A stretch of 34,300 nucleotides of DNA from Candidatus Bathyarchaeota archaeon (lineage in GTDB: Archaea; Thermoproteota; Bathyarchaeia; Bathyarchaeales; Bathyarchaeaceae): positions 873,947-908,246 of the forward strand of contig CP070754.1 in assembly GCA_020348865.1 (NCBI GenBank). The letters are read 5' to 3'. Below are positions 5,826-34,031 of this stretch, piece after piece. Both the position numbers and the translations under genes were made by a program. Below the pieces are notes generated by a model, which saw nothing but the letters and a program-made list of their open reading frames with translations, was not told the DNA's origin and ran no database searches. How positions within the stretch are numbered: the stretch's first letter is position 1; each line of letters starts with the position of its first letter.

Positions 5826-8144
5826 TTATGTTATTGTCGGAATGGTGCTTAACACCATCTGCTTCTCGCCATAAACTAGCTGATTTTTTATCGCTTCTTC
5901 AGTGTATTTGAATTGACTGATAATACTCGCTCCTGCTAGGATCAGCATGTCCATATACTTTTCGACATCAAACAGGTTCTCATCGTTGATTAGTTCTGCA
6001 GCTTTTACACGCTTACTTGGTCTTCTATTTCCAGCATCTGTTATCAAATATCGGACAGTTTGCCCTCCAGAAATCTCTATGCCCTCCTTCATCAATTGTC
6101 TTGCAGCTATAGCTTGAAAAACGTCATGAACATAGTTATCCGGATTCATGGAAAGCCGCTTTGAAATAATCAAATCCTGAAAATCAACGTTGATATCCTT
6201 CAGGTTCTCTAAGTAGCCTCTCAAAATTTCTAGCGATTCAGGGATCCTGTTCAAAAAGCCCTTTGAGTCCTGAGCCTTCGCAAGAACTCTTATCATATCC
6301 ATCTGAGCCTCCCGAATGAAAGGCGGCGTATCTCTCCTTACGGCTTCAATACCCCTCACCTTGATTTCCCCAGAATCAAACACTCCATAGTAACGGTTGA
6401 GAACAGGGACATCAACGTATGTTCTAGAGGGCAAGAAAACAATCCAGCGATATCTACCTTCAACATTCAACTGCACACCAATTTTCTTGGAGACCACTCT
6501 ACAAAGGTCTACGTGTTCTTTTGGCAATGTGTTTTCCTTCTTCAGCCACAAGGAATCAACAATACCATGAACGATTTCGAAACCTCTCTCCTCAGCTATA
6601 CGCACAGCTTCCAGTAGAGCCTCTCTAGCAAAAGCGCAAACCGCAATATGCGCGTCAACTTTGCCGAAACGAGCATTCTTATAACCAAGATAACCAAAAC
6701 AAGTCACCAAAATCCACTTCAAAGCATTCTGCCTATGATTGTAGATTTGTCTTTTTTTCGCGTCTTCAGCCTCATTCCTGAGACGCTTATAGGCGGCTCG
6801 CTTCCTCAGAATCATCTTTAAGGTTCGCGGAACTATGCCCTCACGCTTCTCACAGACATTGTACCCAAGCTCAGGCACCCTCAACTTTGAATCCGGACAA
6901 CATTTGCAAAGGACCGTTTCAGCGGAAATATTCTGCTTCGCCATCAATGTTGGATACATCGATGAAAAATCAACTTCTGCAACTCCATCGTGGATACCCA
7001 GCCGAGGCTCAAATATGAACCCTCCTCTATCCGCTACCAGTAACTCCCAAGCTGACTTGAAAGTTTCAGGCTCCTGTTTCTTCCAAGGGATTAGGATGTC
7101 ATCCTTCGTCGCCTGATAGAGCTGCAAAGAAGACATTATTGTTCCAATTGACGCCCTCGAGGCTCTGTGTAAAGGAAACCTGCAAGTTCTTGAAACCTCG
7201 ATCAACCCATCCAGTCCACAAGCTGAATAAATGAACGTGTTCTTTTCGTCAATATGAATTCGTCCACGCAACCTGCGCATGGGTGCCTTAAAATAAGCTC
7301 TTCCATACGAGAAGAACGTAGTACCACATTTCTTCTCGGCCTTAAGGGGAATGCGCTCTCGTCCCAAAATAAGCCCGTTCAATATTTCGTTTAGCAACGC
7401 CCTGTGAGCCAGATACGGAAAAAGGAACGAGTCTCCTCCACGAGTAAAAATGATGTCCGGGTCCTTCTCTCTGATGGCTTCAACAGTTCTGAGGATCTTT
7501 TCATCTTCCTTTGCATCATCAATGACAATGCTTTCTCTATTACTTCTAAGGGTGATGACCCCGATTGGATCATTGAAGTTAGGGATGGCCTTTTTTTTGG
7601 CTATTTCTATCTGCATCGCCATCAAGCGTAGAGGAGGAAGTGCATAATTCACGCTTTCAACCGATTCCAACAGCCAGTAGGCAAGTCTATCTCCTTGAAT
7701 CGTGACTCCTACAGAAGCAAGCGGAAAAACGTCTCTATCATAGAAGTATGCCTGCGCATATGGGATATCCACGTTATGAAACCTTAACTTCTTACATCCA
7801 CTGGATTTCAGCAACTTTCGGACGAAGTGAGATATCCTACGACAATCTGTGATGGTAACCTCCAAAACCTTTGTCTTCTTGTTTTCCATGAAATCAGCAT
7901 ACTTTCTCACATACCGCCACTTGGCCAAAGACTTGCTCACTGCAAGTTGAGTGGTTAACTTAGACAAATCGCTAATCCGACCTGAAACGTAAATCTTTGG
8001 CTGAAACTTATCCACTAATTTCACGCGTTCTCCATTCTCAGCTATAATCCACACTGTCATTTCGCCAAGATTGGAAGGATATACGTCGAGTAGCCAACCC
8101 TTCAACAGTTTAAGGCTACTCAAGTTGCCTTTCCAACTGCTCAA
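5826..8144 (-). CDS. polB2: Family B DNA polymerase, PolB2 (Dpo2) group, with degenerate proofreading exonuclease
   Basis: Motif A DFSSMYP, motif B KWILVTCFGYLG, motif C HGIVDS (canonical YGDTDS), CKCC...C insert, KVRGIEAVRRD. Exo motifs are eroded (MQIEI; GGDSFLFPYL). The true start may be a downstream TTG (8123 or 8105). Confidence 0.9.
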   Translation of the reverse strand: MSSWKGNLSSLKLLKGWLLDVYPSNLGEMTVWIIAENGERVKLVDKFQPKIYVSGRISDLSKLTTQLAVSKSLAKWRYVRKYADFMENKKTKVLEVTITDCRRISHFVRKLLKSSGCKKLRFHNVDIPYAQAYFYDRDVFPLASVGVTIQGDRLAYWLLESVESVNYALPPLRLMAMQIEIAKKKAIPNFNDPIGVITLRSNRESIVIDDAKEDEKILRTVEAIREKDPDIIFTRGGDSFLFPYLAHRALLNEILNGLILGRERIPLKAEKKCGTTFFSYGRAYFKAPMRRLRGRIHIDEKNTFIYSACGLDGLIEVSRTCRFPLHRASRASIGTIMSSLQLYQATKDDILIPWKKQEPETFKSAWELLVADRGGFIFEPRLGIHDGVAEVDFSSMYPTLMAKQNISAETVLCKCCPDSKLRVPELGYNVCEKREGIVPRTLKMILRKRAAYKRLRNEAEDAKKRQIYNHRQNALKWILVTCFGYLGYKNARFGKVDAHIAVCAFAREALLEAVRIAEERGFEIVHGIVDSLWLKKENTLPKEHVDLCRVVSKKIGVQLNVEGRYRWIVFLPSRTYVDVPVLNRYYGVFDSGEIKVRGIEAVRRDTPPFIREAQMDMIRVLAKAQDSKGFLNRIPESLEILRGYLENLKDINVDFQDLIISKRLSMNPDNYVHDVFQAIAARQLMKEGIEISGGQTVRYLITDAGNRRPSKRVKAAELINDENLFDVEKYMDMLILAGASIISQFKYTEEAIKNQLVYGEKQMVLSTIPTIT

Positions 8145-8379
8145 TTCTCTCTTTAATCTCCGCTAACATCTTTTCGTGATGAAGCAGAATCGACATGAAC
8201 ATAGCTTCAAGCAAAATCGGCCTCGTAGCCATACTTCCCGCTGACGCAAGCATTCTGCAAGCATTCATCATACGATTAAAAGCTTCAGTATCCTTCTTTC
8301 TCATCCCTTTCTTGAAGCCCTTCCACTTCTCAATCTCATTCTCCAACGCTTGACGATATGAAGGAACAGTTTTTCCCAT
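8116..8379 (-). CDS. Small helical PolB2-associated protein (arCOG07300-like)
   Basis: MGKTVPSYR..LE.EI..W..F...MR...AF..M...R......FMSILL pattern; position directly upstream of polB2. Confidence 0.8.
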   Translation of the reverse strand: MGKTVPSYRQALENEIEKWKGFKKGMRKKDTEAFNRMMNACRMLASAGSMATRPILLEAMFMSILLHHEKMLAEIKERIEQLERQLE

Positions 8380-8382
8380 TCA

Positions 8383-9135
8383 TCAATCCTCCAGAAACCT
8401 GTCCATCGTAACCGCGTTAGAATAGAAGTCTACAGCAAACGGCGTTAGGCTCGGATGATACTCCAGAATAAACTTCAGAGCTCCCCGAGACGCCCTCAAC
8501 CTTATAACAGTGCTTGCTCTTCCGAATAAAACTGATTTCAAGAATAGGCTTCTGCTCGAATGGCTCTGATGAAGACATGTGGCAACAATGATTGCTCGTC
8601 TTGTCAAAGCAAGTTCGGAAAGATGATGCGCCATTTTAATGAAGGTTTCTCTGCTCTGATCTTCGGGCACATCTCGATCTTGGAACAATCTAGTTACATC
8701 CGAGATGATCACAAGTTTGGATCTGTACCTTTTCAAAGCCTCCTCCAACTTCTCAAAAATCAACGGAGTCAGCTGATACGCCGTGAATGCCCTAGAAACT
8801 GAGATGTTCTCAAGCGCACGTTTTGGCTCCAAACTATATTTCTGCGCTATCGCTGAAACACTGTATGGATCAAAAGTGTTTCCGCAATCAACGTAAACCG
8901 CTCTACAATTTAGCCCTTCCTTTTTAATAGGCAGTTGACAACGAACACTCAGAAGGAACGAGAGCGTCTTACAGGTTGAATGCCCAAACAAAACCGCTAG
9001 TTTTCCTCTTTGGAAACCTGGAAAGCAATCATCTATCTCTGGGAGACCAAGAGCTAGCAATCCATTGGATTTTTCGGATAATGCAGTTGCGACGCACAAG
9101 GGATATGAACGAATGAATCTACGACTCATAAGCAT
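8383..9135 (-). CDS. Degenerate RadA/RecA-fold ATPase (PolB2-associated)
   Basis: LGLPEIDD, QLP...GL...AVYVDCGNTFDPY, NISVSRAFTAYQL, Walker B LVIISD. Walker A is degenerate (FGHSTCKT) and there is no N-terminal HhH domain. Confidence 0.85.
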   Translation of the reverse strand: MLMSRRFIRSYPLCVATALSEKSNGLLALGLPEIDDCFPGFQRGKLAVLFGHSTCKTLSFLLSVRCQLPIKKEGLNCRAVYVDCGNTFDPYSVSAIAQKYSLEPKRALENISVSRAFTAYQLTPLIFEKLEEALKRYRSKLVIISDVTRLFQDRDVPEDQSRETFIKMAHHLSELALTRRAIIVATCLHQSHSSRSLFLKSVLFGRASTVIRLRASRGALKFILEYHPSLTPFAVDFYSNAVTMDRFLED

Positions 9136-9155: not shown

Positions 9156-9259
9156 AGATTTAGAGACTTGGGTGAAAGTGAACCAATGTTGAAAATGCTC
9201 CACACATCACTAAACCCTAGTGTATGCATGTACATATGACAATCAGTGTTTCAGAAACT
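9156..9259 (-). promoter_or_regulatory. Putative promoter of the radA-like/polB2 operon with DNA-damage-response-like boxes
   Basis: On the minus strand: AGTTTC (9254-9259), ATTTTC (9191-9196), TTCACTTTCA (9173-9182), then a weak TATA-like CTAAAT about 25 nt before the ATG at 9135. Confidence 0.5.
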
Positions 9260-9356
9260 AATGGGATGCGTGCGCGCCTGCAAATCCTGAAGGATGAATC
9301 TAAGGTAGAATATATTGATCGAAATATTCGCTAGTCAAGACAAAAAAGGGAAGGAA

Positions 9357-9899
9357 TTAAGTCTCTTGCTTACTCCCACTGCTTATCCACCAGATAACAA
9401 AGATGCCTGCGGGAATCGCGACAATGAGTAGATCCCAGAGAATTGCTGTTAGCCAAGAATAAACCCAATCATCGAAGCTCCAGCTTTGAAATGGCAAATC
9501 CCATTTCCCATCAAACCACACTACAATCAGCCAAGTTATCAAGTTGAATAGTCCAAATCCGCCACTGCCCTCACTAGCTTTGGATGCACGCATGCGTTCG
9601 TCGTCAAGGAGTTTTCTGTACCATACAACATATACTACAATTACTAGTGGTATTACCCAGCTTCCAACAAAGATAAGTTCCCATAGAATCACATTTAGTA
9701 TGAAAGTGACAACATAGCCTACAGTCCACTCACCAAGCATCATTGGAACGAGCCCCGTTGTTTGTGCATCGGCAACCACCCATAAAAAGGTAAAAACCCC
9801 TGCAATCGTAGCTACTATGCCTGCGCTTATCATTAGCAATGTCGCTTTCCAATGTCTCTTCAAGAAATTCTTCCACACTTTATCGTTGTTTTTCGTCAT
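9357..9899 (-). CDS. Hypothetical multi-pass membrane protein
   Basis: 180 aa, about four hydrophobic Trp-rich segments. Confidence 0.75.
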   Translation of the reverse strand: MTKNNDKVWKNFLKRHWKATLLMISAGIVATIAGVFTFLWVVADAQTTGLVPMMLGEWTVGYVVTFILNVILWELIFVGSWVIPLVIVVYVVWYRKLLDDERMRASKASEGSGGFGLFNLITWLIVVWFDGKWDLPFQSWSFDDWVYSWLTAILWDLLIVAIPAGIFVIWWISSGSKQET

Positions 9900-10009: not shown

Positions 10010-11434
10010 TCACTCGTGTACGAGCCATCTGGGTTTTCCTTCTAGATATTCTGTCAGAAACTTCGCGAATTTGGGGTTGGATGAATACAGTCCTGCAACT
10101 TTTTCATTAACCATGACTTCGAGACTGTTTGGTATGGCTTGAGAAATCAGATGGGCTACGCCAACATGCCTTCCACCGTCTCTCAGTTTCTCGTTTAGCA
10201 GTTCTGCCACATCTGTGTATTCCCGTTTTATTTCTGCAACCCAGCGACTTCCCTCAACGTACGGTCCAGAGATTGTGTGCGATGCTCCAACATGTTTCTC
10301 GAGGAATCTTTTGCATTCTATCCTTTTCCGGATTGGAGGACCAAAATGCTTCTTTACAAGTGGAAGAAAGCGTTGTTCAACCTCGAAGATAAACATGTTT
10401 AGGTCTTCCTCATCCCCCCATGTGACGTCTCGAATAACGTCAAAATCGTTTTGTCGGAGCATTTTGCGCAGCGCCCGTTGGGATTTGTACAGTTGCCCCC
10501 ACAGAATGTCCGAAACCGTTTTCACTCCTCCGAGTTTCACAAAGACAATGGTTGATCCCCGAGTTTTCAAGGTGCTGACTAGGTCTTTGACTTTCAAAGG
10601 GGCGATATAATCTGGGGTAAAGAACCAGGAATCTGGGCGTTGAAGAAAAGCTCTTGATGCAATCACAAATTCATCCAATCTTTCCCTTCTCACTGCTGCC
10701 GCAACATTTCTTCCCTTGTCAACGGGATCTACCAGTACAAGTGGCTCTCCAAAGATCTTTTCCAACTCTCTTTCTCTTCCATCATAATGTTTTTCATAAT
10801 CAATGATTCTTTTTTCCTTCCAGTCTGCTACTGCCTTCAAGATTTTCATGAACGATCCGTAGTTGAGGGTGAGAAGCTCACAGAGGTATCCGCTGAACCC
10901 GCCAACCCTTATTTCCGCCCCATAGACACCGATGCCCTTCATAAATTTCTTCAGGAGCCTAACCTCTCCACGAGTTGTCTCATCGAGGAGAGGCTTCACA
11001 TAATCCGTATGAAATGGAGTTCTATCGGTAGCGCTGATCCACTCACCTCGCTCCACTTGATAGCATGGAACTATATTCACTCGTACACCGTCTACGACAG
11101 ATTCAAGATAGGGATGTTCAGCGAATCTTTCGATCTGTTTGAAACCTTCCGTGGCTTTTCTAGCGATTTCCAAGCAGGTGGTCCCGAAAGATTCGCGTGG
11201 CATGGTAGTTGGCACACGCATGAAAATATCTACGTCGGGCTCCTTGCTTAGCCAAGTATCTTTTGCTACTGACCCCTCAACCCTCACCTTAACATCTAAT
11301 CCAGCTTCTTTAGCTACAACCATCACATTATTTGTCAGCCTGTCGGCTAACTTGAGAGTATTCCTTCTCTCTCTATCGCTTGGAGTGACCTTTCTCAGCA
11401 CATCTGCACAAACTTCTTCAAAGGTTGAGCCCAA
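10010..11434 (-). CDS. cca: Archaeal (class I) CCA-adding enzyme
   Basis: GSVAKDTWL..PDVDIF, AEHPY, SATDRTPFH, YGAE..VGGFSGYLCELL, DPVD..RNVAAA. Start moved to TTG 11434 (GGTGA Shine-Dalgarno) to avoid overlap with thpR. Confidence 0.95.
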   Translation of the reverse strand: MGSTFEEVCADVLRKVTPSDRERRNTLKLADRLTNNVMVVAKEAGLDVKVRVEGSVAKDTWLSKEPDVDIFMRVPTTMPRESFGTTCLEIARKATEGFKQIERFAEHPYLESVVDGVRVNIVPCYQVERGEWISATDRTPFHTDYVKPLLDETTRGEVRLLKKFMKGIGVYGAEIRVGGFSGYLCELLTLNYGSFMKILKAVADWKEKRIIDYEKHYDGRERELEKIFGEPLVLVDPVDKGRNVAAAVRRERLDEFVIASRAFLQRPDSWFFTPDYIAPLKVKDLVSTLKTRGSTIVFVKLGGVKTVSDILWGQLYKSQRALRKMLRQNDFDVIRDVTWGDEEDLNMFIFEVEQRFLPLVKKHFGPPIRKRIECKRFLEKHVGASHTISGPYVEGSRWVAEIKREYTDVAELLNEKLRDGGRHVGVAHLISQAIPNSLEVMVNEKVAGLYSSNPKFAKFLTEYLEGKPRWLVHE

Positions 11435-11466
11435 ATACGTCACCAGATGAACCTGTCTTTCATGTC

Positions 11467-12030
11467 TCAATGAGAGGTTTCTCTTAAGGTCGAGTAGATA
11501 GGTCCTTTTGGGGTTAAGACGCTCTTTTTCAGCTTCAAGCAATTAGCTCCAAGAATCCCAAATCTGAATTCCGCAAGCTCTTCAATACATCGCGCAAGTT
11601 CAGCTTTGTTGCGTCCTGTTCTTACACGCGCGATTGTGAGATGCGGACTGAATCCTTTCCTGTCTGGTTTAAAGCCTAGTTTCTGGAGGCTTGGTTCAAG
11701 TTTACTGGAGATGTTTGAAAGCGCTTCTGCACCTTTTCGAATCCCAGCCCAAACAACTCTTGCGTATTTCAGACTTGGAAACGCGCCAAGGCCTAGGATT
11801 TCAACGTCAAAAGGAGTAAATGAAACCTTGTTCATTTCGTTATGGATTGCGTCAACCATGTTGAAGGAAATGTTTCCAAGGAATCGCATTGTGATGTGCA
11901 CATTCCGTGGTTGAACAAGCTTCAGATTTGCGCCCGTATTAGCGAGGTGGCCTTGAGCCTCTGAAAGCTTTCTAAGCACAGGCTCGCTATCAATGTCGAA
12001 AGCGATAAAACTTCGAATTCTCTCTGACAT
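11467..12030 (-). CDS. thpR: RNA 2',3'-cyclic phosphodiesterase (2H family, ThpR/LigT)
   Basis: R.FIA, HITMRFLG and PHLTIARVR 2H motifs, S.LTPKGPIY. Confidence 0.95.
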   Translation of the reverse strand: MSERIRSFIAFDIDSEPVLRKLSEAQGHLANTGANLKLVQPRNVHITMRFLGNISFNMVDAIHNEMNKVSFTPFDVEILGLGAFPSLKYARVVWAGIRKGAEALSNISSKLEPSLQKLGFKPDRKGFSPHLTIARVRTGRNKAELARCIEELAEFRFGILGANCLKLKKSVLTPKGPIYSTLRETSH

Positions 12031-12134
12031 GTGGAATCATTCCACCGACACTCCGAAATCTATTGTTATGTCTCGTTTAAAGGTTTTAAGTCGAGCACAT
12101 AGATACATCTACAACATGCGGGTATGATGGGGCA

Positions 12135-12698
12135 ATGAAGAGAAAAGCTGTTGTAGGCGTAGCTGGGATGCCAGGCTCTGGAAAAGCTGCAGTCAAAGAA
12201 ATCGTCAGAGAAATGGGTTATTCAGTGATAATCATGGGAGACGCGATACGTGAAGAGGCTGAGCGAAGGAAATTGAAGCCCACCCAAGAAATCCTTGGTC
12301 AACTCATGCTCGAGCTACGGAAGGACAAAGGTGAAGCTGTGGTAGCCAAACGATGCATTCCAAAAATCGAGCTTGCGGAAGAAAAGGTCGTTTTTGTTGA
12401 TGGAATTCGAAGCTTGCATGAGGTCAACGAGTTTAGGAAACACTTCTGGAAATTCTTCCTCATTGCAATTCACACGTCGCCCAGAACGAGGTTTCAACGC
12501 CTCTTCAGGAGGAAGCGAAGCGACGACCCAAAGAGCTGGGAAGCTTTCGTGGAACGCGATTCACGGGAGCTCAATGTTGGTCTAGGCGACGCTATAGCAA
12601 TGGCCGATTACATGCTACCAAATGAAGGAACAAGGAAGCAGCTGAAAAGAGAAATGCGTAGAGTCTTGGGGAGTGTATTAGCGAAGTGGATGAAATAG
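12135..12698 (+). CDS. UPF0200 P-loop nucleotide kinase (CoaE-like)
   Basis: GMPGSGK, MGDAIREEA, VDGIRS..E, R.RSDD, RD.REL..GLG.AIAMAD. Confidence 0.85.
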   Translation: MKRKAVVGVAGMPGSGKAAVKEIVREMGYSVIIMGDAIREEAERRKLKPTQEILGQLMLELRKDKGEAVVAKRCIPKIELAEEKVVFVDGIRSLHEVNEFRKHFWKFFLIAIHTSPRTRFQRLFRRKRSDDPKSWEAFVERDSRELNVGLGDAIAMADYMLPNEGTRKQLKREMRRVLGSVLAKWMK

Positions 12699-32807: not shown

Positions 32808-34031
32808 ATGCCAGCGAATCTTCCTGCAGAGGCAAAGCACAAATGGAGTGAAGTTGCATCAGCGAAAACGCCTCAGGAAAAGCTTCGCACGCTCAAAGAG
32901 TTTTTGAGTTTAGTTCCGAAACACAAAGGCACGGCTCGCCTTCGTGCTCAAGCAAAACGCCAAATCGCCTCTCTGCGAAGAGAAATCGAAGAGAGAAAGC
33001 AGAGAAAAATCGGGAAGGGCGGACCAAGATTCTTCATAGAGAAAGAAGGCGCAGCACAGATTGCGATTCTGGGTCCAACGAACGTAGGTCGAAGCAGCTT
33101 GTTAGCTTCGATAACCAACGCAAAGGTTGTGGTTTCAGGCTATCCATTTACGACACTTGAACCTGTGCCAGGCATGTTTCAATATGAAAATCTGCAGTTT
33201 CAGATGGTCGAAGCCCCTCCGTTGATGAAAGGTTCAGCCGATGGAGAAGCGTGGGGTCCACAAACGTTAGCATTGGCTCGTAACGCTGACGGATTGATAT
33301 TGATGGTAGATCTATCACGAAGACCTTGCAGACAACTGTCTCTGATCCTGGGTGAACTGGAAAAAGCGAAGATTCTAACTCAGAAACCTCGCGCACGAGT
33401 AGACATCGCAAGAAGACACATGAACGTAGGTCTGAAAATCCTTGTGCTAGGACGACTAGTCAACTGTACTGTGAGGGATGTAGAACAACTGCTGAGAAGC
33501 TATCGAATCTCAGACGGAATAGTGAAGATCTACGGAAAAGCCACATTAAATGATGTGGAAGATGCCATCTTCGAAAGTACCGTGTATCGTCCTGCAATAG
33601 TCGTTGCCAACAAGGCAGACGCTCCCAATGCAATTGCAGAGACGAAGGAATTGTTTAGTCGCACTAGCAATCGGATGAAAAGTATCCAGATTTCCTGTAA
33701 GAACCGGACTGGCTTGGAAGATTTAGGAGTAGAGCTGTTCAGAGTGTTGAACATAATCCGTGTCTACACGAAGGAGCCAAACAAGAAAAAGCCCTCTTCA
33801 AAACCGTTCATCCTGAAGAAAGGAGCTACGGTTCAAGATTTGGCAAAACAGATTCATAGCGACTTTTACCGACAGTTCAGTTATGCGAAGGTGTGGGCTA
33901 ATCCTCCTCAAAAAGGTGAAGGCGCAAAAAAGACGCCTAGAGCGAAAAGACGTTTTTCTTTCAGTCCACAGAAAGTGGGCTTGAGCTTTCCCCTGGAAGA
34001 CGGTGACATTATAGAACTGCACATAAAATAG
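32808..34031 (+). CDS. OBG-family DRG-type GTPase with a C-terminal TGS domain
   Basis: MPANLP, PKHKGT, G1 GPTNVGRSSL, G2 YPFTT, G4 NKAD, IRVYTK, IHSDF, LEDGDIIELH. Confidence 0.9.
   Translation: MPANLPAEAKHKWSEVASAKTPQEKLRTLKEFLSLVPKHKGTARLRAQAKRQIASLRREIEERKQRKIGKGGPRFFIEKEGAAQIAILGPTNVGRSSLLASITNAKVVVSGYPFTTLEPVPGMFQYENLQFQMVEAPPLMKGSADGEAWGPQTLALARNADGLILMVDLSRRPCRQLSLILGELEKAKILTQKPRARVDIARRHMNVGLKILVLGRLVNCTVRDVEQLLRSYRISDGIVKIYGKATLNDVEDAIFESTVYRPAIVVANKADAPNAIAETKELFSRTSNRMKSIQISCKNRTGLEDLGVELFRVLNIIRVYTKEPNKKKPSSKPFILKKGATVQDLAKQIHSDFYRQFSYAKVWANPPQKGEGAKKTPRAKRRFSFSPQKVGLSFPLEDGDIIELHIK

Follow-up and report, generated by a model that had tools for sequence, protein, structure and literature searches.

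The window analyzed here is a 34,300-nt stretch of the genome of a Candidatus Bathyarchaeota archaeon (assembly GCA_020348865.1, contig CP070754.1, positions 873,947 to 908,246). On its minus strand lie three adjacent, co-oriented genes, which encode a Rad51-family protein (iRadA), a small helical protein resembling PPB2 and a PolB2-type family B DNA polymerase (Table 1), and an intergenic gap of 221 nt separates the first of them from a 180-aa open reading frame (ORF) without a firm Pfam match. Within this gap, at positions -38 to -48 relative to the annotated ATG of iRadA, stands the 11-nt sequence with which this report is concerned, box A. The original prediction, made from the letters of the window, had placed an SOS-like box at the promoter of the PolB2 operon, and direct reading of the minus strand from 9183 to 9158 (GTTCACTTTCACCCAAGTCTCTAAAT) confirms that the sequence lies where it was said to lie. 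Below, G000 is the genome bearing the window and C1 its contig; other G-numbers denote compared genomes and L-numbers compared loci.

The gene trio corresponds to the iRadA-PPB2-PolB2 "mutasome" operon described by Timinskas et al., who also report that the PolB2 operon is damage-induced in Sulfolobales and that orc1/cdc6 genes are enriched in polB2 neighborhoods; the words "promoter" and "Bathyarchae" are both absent from that paper (PMC11791011). Following the same source, the 87-aa protein of the window is identified as PPB2 (arCOG07300) by its position and size only. Orthologs of iRadA, with protein identities of 35 to 67%, are found in 28 of 61 related genomes and on 80 named contigs of metagenome-assembled genomes, 78 of which are labeled Bathyarchaeota or Bathyarchaeia. 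The small gene adjoins iRadA in 71 of 80 loci and all three genes are present in 66; the polymerase is absent from 14 loci, 5 of which have the 87-aa gene near the end of the analyzed stretch, where PolB may simply be cut off. The Walker A position of iRadA reads GHSTCKT, the canonical motif being GxxxxGKT, and its lysine is not conserved across our alignment of the orthologs (alignment A1), in keeping with the lack of an N-terminal domain and of ATPase residues expected of a PolB2 mutasome member. The canonical form of motif C in family B polymerases is YGDTDS, which the aligned polymerase of locus L221 retains and the polymerase of the window does not (Table 1).

Box A resembles two published motifs. 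In Halobacterium sp. NRC-1, Boubriak et al. described the 11-mer TTTCACTTTCA upstream of the TATA box of radA1, top6B, vng17 and vng280, all induced by ultraviolet (UV)-B light; it lies about 50 nt before the start, and similar sequences were noted at the radA genes of Methanospirillum and of further haloarchaea (PMC2556686). In Sulfolobus islandicus, according to Sun et al., 17 of the top 21 promoters induced by 4-nitroquinoline 1-oxide (NQO) carry the 20-bp consensus AATAGTTTCRGWDTACTCWS; mutation of its ANTTTC hexamer abolishes induction, and Orc1-2 footprints on this DNA-damage-responsive element (DDRE) (PMC6061795). The original prediction had quoted the Halobacterium motif correctly and had accurately described ANTTTC as the damage element of the Orc1-2 regulon; box A indeed matches the former at 10 of 11 positions and contains the latter.

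Taken alone, the site in the window is not significant. ANTTTC is not enriched there (115 matches, with 130 +/- 11 expected from shuffles), the 11-mer is found 25 times at no more than two mismatches (21.8 expected) and 5 times at no more than one, and 122-nt windows holding at least three ANTTTC on one strand make up 0.11 to 0.15% of starts genome-wide, which amounts to dozens of such clusters. Plain scans of G000 with the 10-mer and the 11-mer were equally uninformative, returning 16 and 4 matches, respectively, mostly within ORFs. What distinguishes the site is its recurrence at orthologous genes. In an unbiased k-mer count over the 250 nt preceding the orthologous gene at 77 Bathyarchaeia loci, with windows from the same loci as controls, the core of box A, TTCACTTT, was the commonest 8-mer, present at 40 of the 77 loci versus 25 of 3846 control windows, an enrichment of about 80-fold at a fixed position and orientation. 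The exact Halobacterium 11-mer was found upstream of iRadA at 15 of the 77 loci (2 of 3846 controls), and the numbers rose to 29 (23 controls) with up to one mismatch and to 54 (238 controls) with up to two. Being related, the compared genomes do not count as independent samples; yet the enrichment remains large, and since the encoded proteins are only 35 to 67% identical, the box seems to be conserved by more than neutral retention. Thus, we are highly confident that box A is a real, conserved cis element of a repair regulon, and the claim of a genuine element at the PolB2 operon promoter is borne out.

The remaining features of the gap do not share this conservation. Two further ANTTTC copies, one of them inside the palindrome GTTTCTGAAAC, had been noted around the site, as had two flanking tracts of alternating purines and pyrimidines (RY). 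All of them are present in the window, but neither the hexamers nor the palindrome has a counterpart at matching positions in 30 orthologous upstream regions, and we rejected them as parts of the element; at the density of the genome, a gap of this length should hold about 0.37 ANTTTC per strand. In 7 of 76 promoters, an RY run of at least 12 nt lies in the 120 nt preceding box A, as against 52 of 3261 mostly coding control windows; enriched but confined to a minority of loci in related genomes, such runs were not retained as a defining part either.

Alignment of 76 promoters (alignment A2) gave the consensus ACTTTC, ACTT, nnCTCTC, in which the A, T and T columns of ANTTTC are invariant. Box A, (T)TTCACTTT(C/A)AC, which in Bathyarchaeia is usually extended to a tandem TTTCA-C-TTTCA, is followed by 4 to 6 variable nucleotides, by box B, (GAGT)CTCTC(C), and, some 48 nt from box A, by a TATA box that takes the forms TTTAAAA, ACGTTTAT, CCTTAAGAG and CCTTATGAG. 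In distant orthologs this TATA box is canonical and precedes a Shine-Dalgarno-like GGTGGAG and then an ATG; in the iRadA promoters of close relatives it is degenerate. By alignment, the TATA position of the window promoter would be GCTTATGAG, which contains the second ATG of the annotated iRadA and whose upstream edge is overlapped by the first (9135-9133). A second TATA-like block, box C, lies closer to box A, and its position reads GTCGTTTC, which is not TATA-like, in more distant orthologs. The original prediction had instead taken AAGTCTCTAAAT (9169-9158) for a weak transcription factor B recognition element (BRE)/TATA. This assignment is not supported: the corresponding position in orthologs is occupied by box B (GAGTCTC) and then by non-TATA sequence such as CAAGCTA or GGACTTA, so that AAGTCTCTAAAT consists of box B and window-specific sequence, and the conserved TATA-like blocks are those about 25 and 48 nt from box A.

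The position of the TATA box bears on the start of iRadA, for which ATG 9135, ATG 9129 and TTG 9099 are candidates. The first 12 codons of the annotated gene (9099-9135) are conserved in orthologs as DNA and not as a reading frame: the counterpart of the window ATG is out of frame or follows a stop in L010 and L012-L015, and it reads TAA in L018-L023. From these alignments, the annotated start is probably misplaced, and because the window ATG is out of frame or TAA in several orthologs, the real start may be TTG 9099. The same frame shifts and TAA codons ruled out the block CCTTATGAG as a conserved start codon.

Table 1. Features of the iRadA-PPB2-PolB2 locus and its surroundings (positions are those of the window)
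Feature	Position	Strand	Remarks
Box A, GTTCACTTTCA	9183-9173	minus	Read directly; core TTCACTTT at 9182-9175, coinciding with the invariant columns of A2; ACTTTC (ANTTTC hexamer) at 9179-9174
Box B, GTCTCT	9167-9162	minus	Counterpart of (GAGT)CTCTC in orthologs and of the (T)ACTC(WS) half in the 20-bp DDRE of Sulfolobus; columns 15-21 past the core are conserved
Box C, GAGTATTTTTC	9152-9142	minus	TATA-like, at ~25 nt from box A; counterpart of TAGAATATT in close orthologs and of AGAAT.TTTTAT in radA promoters
Putative TATA position, GCTTATGAG	9133-9125	minus	~48 nt from box A; aligns with canonical TATA (TTTAAAA or TTTAAATA) of radA promoters and distant iRadA promoters (A2)
ATTTTC, extra ANTTTC	9196-9191	minus	Read directly; no counterpart in orthologs
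AGTTTC, extra ANTTTC	9259-9254	minus	Inside the palindrome; no counterpart in orthologs
Palindrome GTTTCTGAAAC	9258-9248	minus	Originally given in the plus-strand reading
RY runs	9277-9266 (12 nt), 9238-9220 (19 nt)		Read directly
iRadA, first operon gene	8383-9135	minus	250 aa; Pfam Rad51, 1.8e-19, spanning profile positions 22-156 only
PPB2-like small helical protein, second gene	8116-8379	minus	87 aa; without Pfam match
PolB2-type family B DNA polymerase	5826-8144	minus	772 aa; Pfam DNA_pol_B, 2.6e-36; motif A DFSSMYPT, motif C HGIVDS
Upstream ORF	9357-9899		180 aa
CCA-adding enzyme	10010-11542		
LigT-type 2'-5' RNA ligase/phosphoesterase	11467-12030		
AAA_17 kinase-like protein	12135-12698		

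The iRadA promoters align with those of radA over box A, box B and the TATA box about 48 nt away. In G000, ACTTTCA occurs twice, 9 nt apart, and is followed by CTCTCTCC about 220 nt upstream of radA (C1:712359). The radA promoters of 30 relatives consist of A(G/C)TTTCA, a spacer of about 5-7 nt, (A)CTCTC and, some 48 nt away from the box, TTTAAATA; this architecture is recovered by a strict pattern in 21 of the 30, five more have a box-like sequence, and four (L143, L144, L155 and L157) have none. A profile built from the alignment of iRadA and radA promoters, a measure of sequence only, gave at least one match at an expectation value (E) of 0.05 or better in 58 of the 60 genomes of the family, usually 2-10 in each. 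The matches in G000 are the site of the PolB2 operon itself, 357262-357325, 984102-984160, 766630-766675, the radA site and 33844-33881; of all genomic matches to the sequence model, box A of the window, itself part of the training set, scores best (E 6.3e-11). The site at 33844-33881, weak by itself (E 0.1), precedes a 222-aa gene and a gene for a Y-family DinB polymerase (Pfam IMS, 3.4e-47), and box A with a TATA box about 48-52 nt away is found at this operon in all four genomes that have it. A second radA paralog is preceded by the element in six genomes (G013, G023, G024, G026, G030 and G034). No element was found at a second group of DinB paralogs (25 of the 30 DinB loci searched) and no box upstream of the radB-like gene of G000 (1440297). 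The original prediction had proposed to look upstream of other repair genes, and radA, its paralog and the DinB operon do carry the same architecture in a genome that also has a candidate class-II Orc1/Cdc6 paralog. As judged from these promoters, the element appears to be shared by a regulon centered on recombination and translesion synthesis, and it is because of this gene content that we link the regulon to DNA damage. We found no description of such a regulon in literature combining Bathyarchaeota with Orc1, DNA damage or PolB2, subscription journals not being covered by that search.

The narrow pattern ACTTTCAN{4,6}GAGTCTC was discarded as a definition of the regulon: it gave 18 matches in 17 of the 60 family genomes (6 for the reversed control) and mostly returned iRadA promoters. 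One site that fits it, upstream of the SHMT gene of G000 (755162-755181), was missed by both profiles and left out of the regulon.

The genes downstream of 20 further profile matches were inspected. The iRadA cassette and radA-type genes account for three matches each, and a locus encoding a ~63-aa protein, a 63-aa Zn-ribbon protein and a ~478-aa protein for six; one match precedes a homolog of a 110-aa protein of G000, one and probably two a homolog of its 64-aa Zn-ribbon protein, two small "MVRIQ" proteins, one an RNase_H-superfamily exonuclease-like gene, and two lack a clear ORF. Several of these small proteins recur. A family of ~106-110 aa without Pfam match stands behind the full element in two genomes (G000:C1:984190-984522, with its site at 984102-984160, and L209, G027:C129) and is a candidate for a damage-response protein or for the regulator itself. 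Box A and box B also precede a 52-64-aa Zn-ribbon protein (CRNPWN...C..C) in G000 (C1:382518-382712), where a second TTCACTTTCA lies about 90 nt further upstream, and at L206 (G079:C14). A different Zn-ribbon protein of 63-98 aa (CxxC...CPxCGxKL) follows the element at L197, L200, L201, L202, L205 and L210 (genus g20), L230 (G119) and L231 (G126), the first six of these loci belonging to Bathyarchaeia genomes and the last two to other families of the phylum (pairwise BLAST, 6e-11 and 3e-24); this gene and its element seem to be conserved together across classes.

Other matches stand apart from these families. The second-best match of G000 (357262-357325), just upstream of which there is an RY run (GCGCGTGCGTG), precedes a 744-aa ORF (357383-359617) with a hydrophobic N terminus and D-rich repeats near its C terminus. 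A complete iRadA-type promoter, including the CTAAATCTTTA block, lies before a SIR2_2-domain gene in G025 (L032/L170, C58), and up to three sites lie near the RNase_H-superfamily exonuclease-like gene of G011:C28 (L031/L193). G018 and G033 have about 10 profile matches each; near-identical promoter copies without a clear ORF, several of them at contig ends (G018:C112, C113 and C115; also L199 and L207), suggest a repeated or mobile element carrying the box. In Halobacterium, a near-match to the 11-mer before a transposase gene has likewise been described (PMC2556686). In G044 (C33:149753-150337), the radA match falls within a 728-aa open frame and is limited to the C-terminal part of radA, and this radA may be intein-containing or fused. 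In the window itself, the genes beyond the 180-aa ORF (10010-12698) look like an RNA-repair or RNA-maturation cluster unrelated to the box.

G000 encodes two Orc1/Cdc6 proteins. The product of C1:740751-742019 is initiator-like, scoring 379 bits to Cdc6-1 of S. solfataricus (2qby_A). That of C1:195193-196398 aligns over its full length with its best match, P. aerophilum Cdc6 (1fnn; 197 bits), and comprises an AAA+ domain and a C-terminal winged helix (Cdc6_C match, 2.2e-22). This winged helix shares RG(H/Y)TQ...LG and G.RG(K/R)TT with 1fnn and with ORC2 of A. pernix (1w5s), a protein that has been used as an Orc1-2 homolog (PMC12490963), whereas the initiator type has QRRVS and GRYGKT at the same positions. 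By this resemblance of the DNA-binding domains, C1:195193-196398 would be an Orc1-2-like paralog, and it has orthologs in 50 of 61 relatives. At four places (G023:C1:1605933-1610484, G030:C30:26593-31031, G034:C5:9113-15397 and G046:C11:85260-87968) no more than a few kb separate the Orc1-2-like gene from the second radA paralog. Among the families of the order that were sampled, the radA box is present in f1, f2, f3, f6, f7 and f9, all of which have an Orc1-2-like ortholog of at least 52% identity, and absent from f4, f5, f11 and f12, which have only matches of at most 37% identity or none; in each of the three f5 genomes there is just one Orc1/Cdc6 gene, and both iRadA and any profile match better than E 0.1 are lacking. 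This distribution fits the coevolution of a regulator and its site.

Based on these observations, we propose that box A, (T)TTCACTTTCA with its ANTTTC, and box B, a CTCTC about 4-6 nt later, are the upstream and downstream halves of one bipartite promoter element that responds to DNA damage. Within this order of Bathyarchaeia, the element stands at a constant distance before the TATA box of iRadA-PPB2-PolB2, radA, the second radA paralog, the 222-aa/DinB operon and a few small conserved proteins. The noninitiator Orc1/Cdc6 paralog of Orc1-2 type (C1:195193-196398) would bind box A and box B via its winged-helix domain and, after DNA damage, would help recruit the basal transcription machinery to weak TATA boxes, the genes for translesion synthesis and recombination being thereby switched on together. 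Archaeal elements upstream of TATA usually serve activation, in an arrangement typical of activator-dependent promoters such as those of Ptr2, and we favor activation by the Orc1-2-like protein given the constant spacing by which the element precedes TATA and the degenerate TATA in the iRadA promoters of close relatives. As a whole, this mechanism, a bipartite damage-responsive element read by an Orc1-2-type paralog that activates a repair regulon, seems to us somewhat probable. Homology with the Sulfolobus DDRE together with reading by an Orc1-2-like protein is likewise somewhat probable, and that damage is the signal and activation the mode has about an even chance. An activator-type damage regulon that reaches Bathyarchaeia and controls this cassette had been the core of the original prediction; the conserved element at the PolB2 operon and at repair genes supports it in part, and on its central point more strongly than could have been foreseen from the letters of the window, but the promoter anatomy that it assumed calls for revision.

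Several observations weigh against the proposed mechanism. The Bathyarchaeial TATA box lies about 48 nt from box A, compared with about 21-24 nt in Sulfolobus, and the copy in the window departs from the consensus by a G at position 1 and by a box B whose CTC is shifted 2 nt further away. Two of the G000 matches (357262 and 766630) precede genes without an evident repair role; radA is not a prominent damage-response gene in Sulfolobus, according to text quoted in PMC2556686, so that the regulons differ. The product of C1:195193-196398 scores higher to the initiator-type 2qby_A (120 bits) than to 1w5s (100 bits). Only in about 17 of 30 relatives does the promoter of its gene carry A(C/G)TT(T/C)C and TTCTC-like sequence, some 29 nt ahead of a conserved TTTTTAAGAGAC block, and no such box is present in G001, G003 and G004, the three closest relatives of G000. 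The co-occurrence of box and paralog across families could reflect one or two evolutionary events only. Finally, our comparisons covered one phylum, outside the order 20 of the 131 genomes from the rest of it gave weak matches only (E 3e-4 to 1e-2), and a strict box A plus box B pattern, ASTTTCANNNNNCTCTC, is only about 2-fold more frequent than its reversed control (31 versus 11 in the order and 196 versus 103 in the rest of the phylum, two repeat-rich genomes being left out).

The profile matched at E 0.01 or better in 11 of 15 genomes of the order and in none of 5 genomes representing the other orders of the class, and the enrichment of ASTTTCANNNNNCTCTC is clear in some families and nil in others. 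In G107 (family f23), the 38 copies of this pattern (2 in the control) are probably a repeat family. Among the weak matches from outside the order, 14 of 15 inspected have box A and box B, often with TATA directly after. The genes downstream include a divergent family B polymerase (L221 and L223; BLAST 7e-6 to the window PolB over motifs A to C), radA (L236) and, at L230 and L231, a homolog (6e-11) of the Bathyarchaeial Zn-ribbon protein. It is tempting to imagine one ancient Orc1-2-type circuit that reads (T)TTCACTTTCA/ANTTTC-CTC and has recombinase and translesion-polymerase genes under its control in both Thermoproteota and Euryarchaeota, a generalization that we regard as tentative and rather unlikely.

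Other explanations of the element differ in what they keep of this picture. The same element and regulon might be read by a different, possibly lineage-specific factor, the likeness to Sulfolobus being convergent or partial. Several small unknown proteins lie behind the element in more than one genome, as is typical of autoregulated factors, and candidates for such a factor would be the ~110-aa family (G000:984190-984522), the Zn-ribbon proteins and the small "MVRIQ" proteins; the box-to-TATA spacing, unlike that of Sulfolobus, and the Orc1-2-like gene without a box in G001, G003 and G004 also point this way. Yet ANTTTC, 4 nt, NNCTC(TC) is the very layout of promoters footprinted by Orc1-2, the homologous operon is Orc1-2-dependent in S. 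islandicus, the box co-occurs with a close Orc1-2-like ortholog across 10 families, and none of the small proteins has a DNA-binding domain recognizable in Pfam; we consider a separate factor unlikely. Less likely still, the element would tie genes of repair and recombination to the cell cycle or to replication instead of to damage, serving either as a mini-origin recognition box-like Orc1 site or as the operator of a repressor that is released in S phase. In favor of this, Orc1/Cdc6 proteins act in replication, expression of radA and polymerases in S phase would be plausible, and we take the reverse complement of box A (GAAAGTGAA) to be reminiscent of the GAAA-containing cores of origin recognition boxes. 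Against this stand the damage induction of the homologous PolB2 operon and motif in Sulfolobales, the UV induction associated with the Halobacterium 11-mer, and the location of the element upstream of TATA, a position usually tied to activation in archaea.

The architecture assumed by the original prediction, in which AAGTCTCTAAAT (centered near 9161) is a weak BRE/TATA that drives a leaderless mRNA from ATG 9135 with Sulfolobus-type geometry, has some arithmetic in its favor, since the A of this ATG follows the center of TCTCTAAAT by 26 nt, and also some precedent: TATA directly follows box B in S. islandicus, where the dpo2 promoter likewise reads CTCTCTAAAG after the box. We nevertheless consider it improbable, as the sequence after GAGTCTC in orthologs is not TATA-like, ATG 9135 has no in-frame counterpart in most of them, and the conserved TATA-like blocks lie elsewhere. 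That the box is a chance, low-complexity match without function might be suggested by the lack of hexamer enrichment in the window and by the five 11-mers found there at no more than one mismatch; the roughly 80-fold enrichment of the core in orthologous promoters, its fixed position and orientation, and its recurrence at other repair genes leave this explanation a negligible likelihood.

Whether archaea possess a conserved SOS-like transcriptional response to damage has been an open question for decades and, to our knowledge, the only archaeal damage circuit to have been worked out is that of Orc1-2 and the DDRE in Sulfolobales. A DDRE-like element is now seen in uncultured Bathyarchaeia, at the homologous PolB2 operon, at radA and at the DinB operon, and in many orthologs it contains the exact, hitherto orphan UV motif of Halobacterium. 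Three separate observations, the Sulfolobus DDRE, the Halobacterium UV motif and the Bathyarchaeial box, are thereby linked, and concrete targets are provided: a defined promoter architecture, a candidate regulator gene and a set of regulon members, among them uncharacterized small proteins that are conserved across classes along with the element. If the single ancient circuit considered above were true, the radA motif of Halobacterium and Methanospirillum, the Sulfolobus DDRE and the Bathyarchaeial box would be the same element, and archaea would have a counterpart of bacterial SOS that predates the divergence of their major phyla.

The operon itself agrees with the PolB2 mutasome in gene order, gene sizes, the degenerate ATPase site of iRadA and the altered motif C of the polymerase; the published link to orc1/cdc6 neighbors and to damage induction is in accord with our picture, and the cis element and the wider regulon are the additions of the present analysis. 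The likeness to the Sulfolobus DDRE extends to details. In supplementary Table S6 of PMC6061795, the promoter of S. islandicus orc1-2 reads AGTTTC, GGAC, TACTCTCT and that of dpo2 (PolB2, SiRe_0614; induced 21-fold in an Orc1-2-dependent manner) reads CACTTTC, GGTG, TTCTCTCT, that is, ANTTTC, 4 nt and T(A/T)CTCTCT in both. The Bathyarchaeial consensus has the same layout, including the CTC(TC) half about 4 nt after the hexamer, so that box A and box B appear to form a DDRE-like element at a homologous operon. Also alike are the position upstream of TATA, the presence at the PolB2 (dpo2) promoter, the sharing of the element by several damage-tolerance genes of one genome and the encoding of an Orc1-2-like paralog. 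The differences are that TATA directly follows box B in S. islandicus, whereas the main Bathyarchaeial TATA lies about two helical turns further, and that the Bathyarchaeial regulon holds radA, the radA paralog and DinB, with box A extended in tandem. Sulfolobales-type DDREs are placed at about -25 to -55 from the start codon, immediately before TATA; the box of the window stands at -38 to -48 from ATG 9135, a start codon that is itself uncertain, with the conserved TATA position about 48 nt away.

The Halobacterium motif is matched by an identical 11-mer in 15 of 77 orthologous promoters and at 10 of 11 positions in the window. Both sequences stand upstream of TATA, roughly 40-50 nt before the annotated start, at a gene of the RadA family, and related boxes precede radA; however, Halobacterium belongs to another phylum and is not known to have a factor that binds the motif, and radA of G000 has two ACTTTCA 9 nt apart rather than the 11-mer.

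In bacteria, the SOS box is the operator of LexA, a repressor that is cleaved after damage. The resemblance lies in the logic, one short operator being common to recombinase and translesion-polymerase genes, and not in the sequences, which are unrelated and without homology. In the Bathyarchaeial promoters the site stands upstream of TATA, and its likely reader would be an activator with AAA+ and winged-helix domains.

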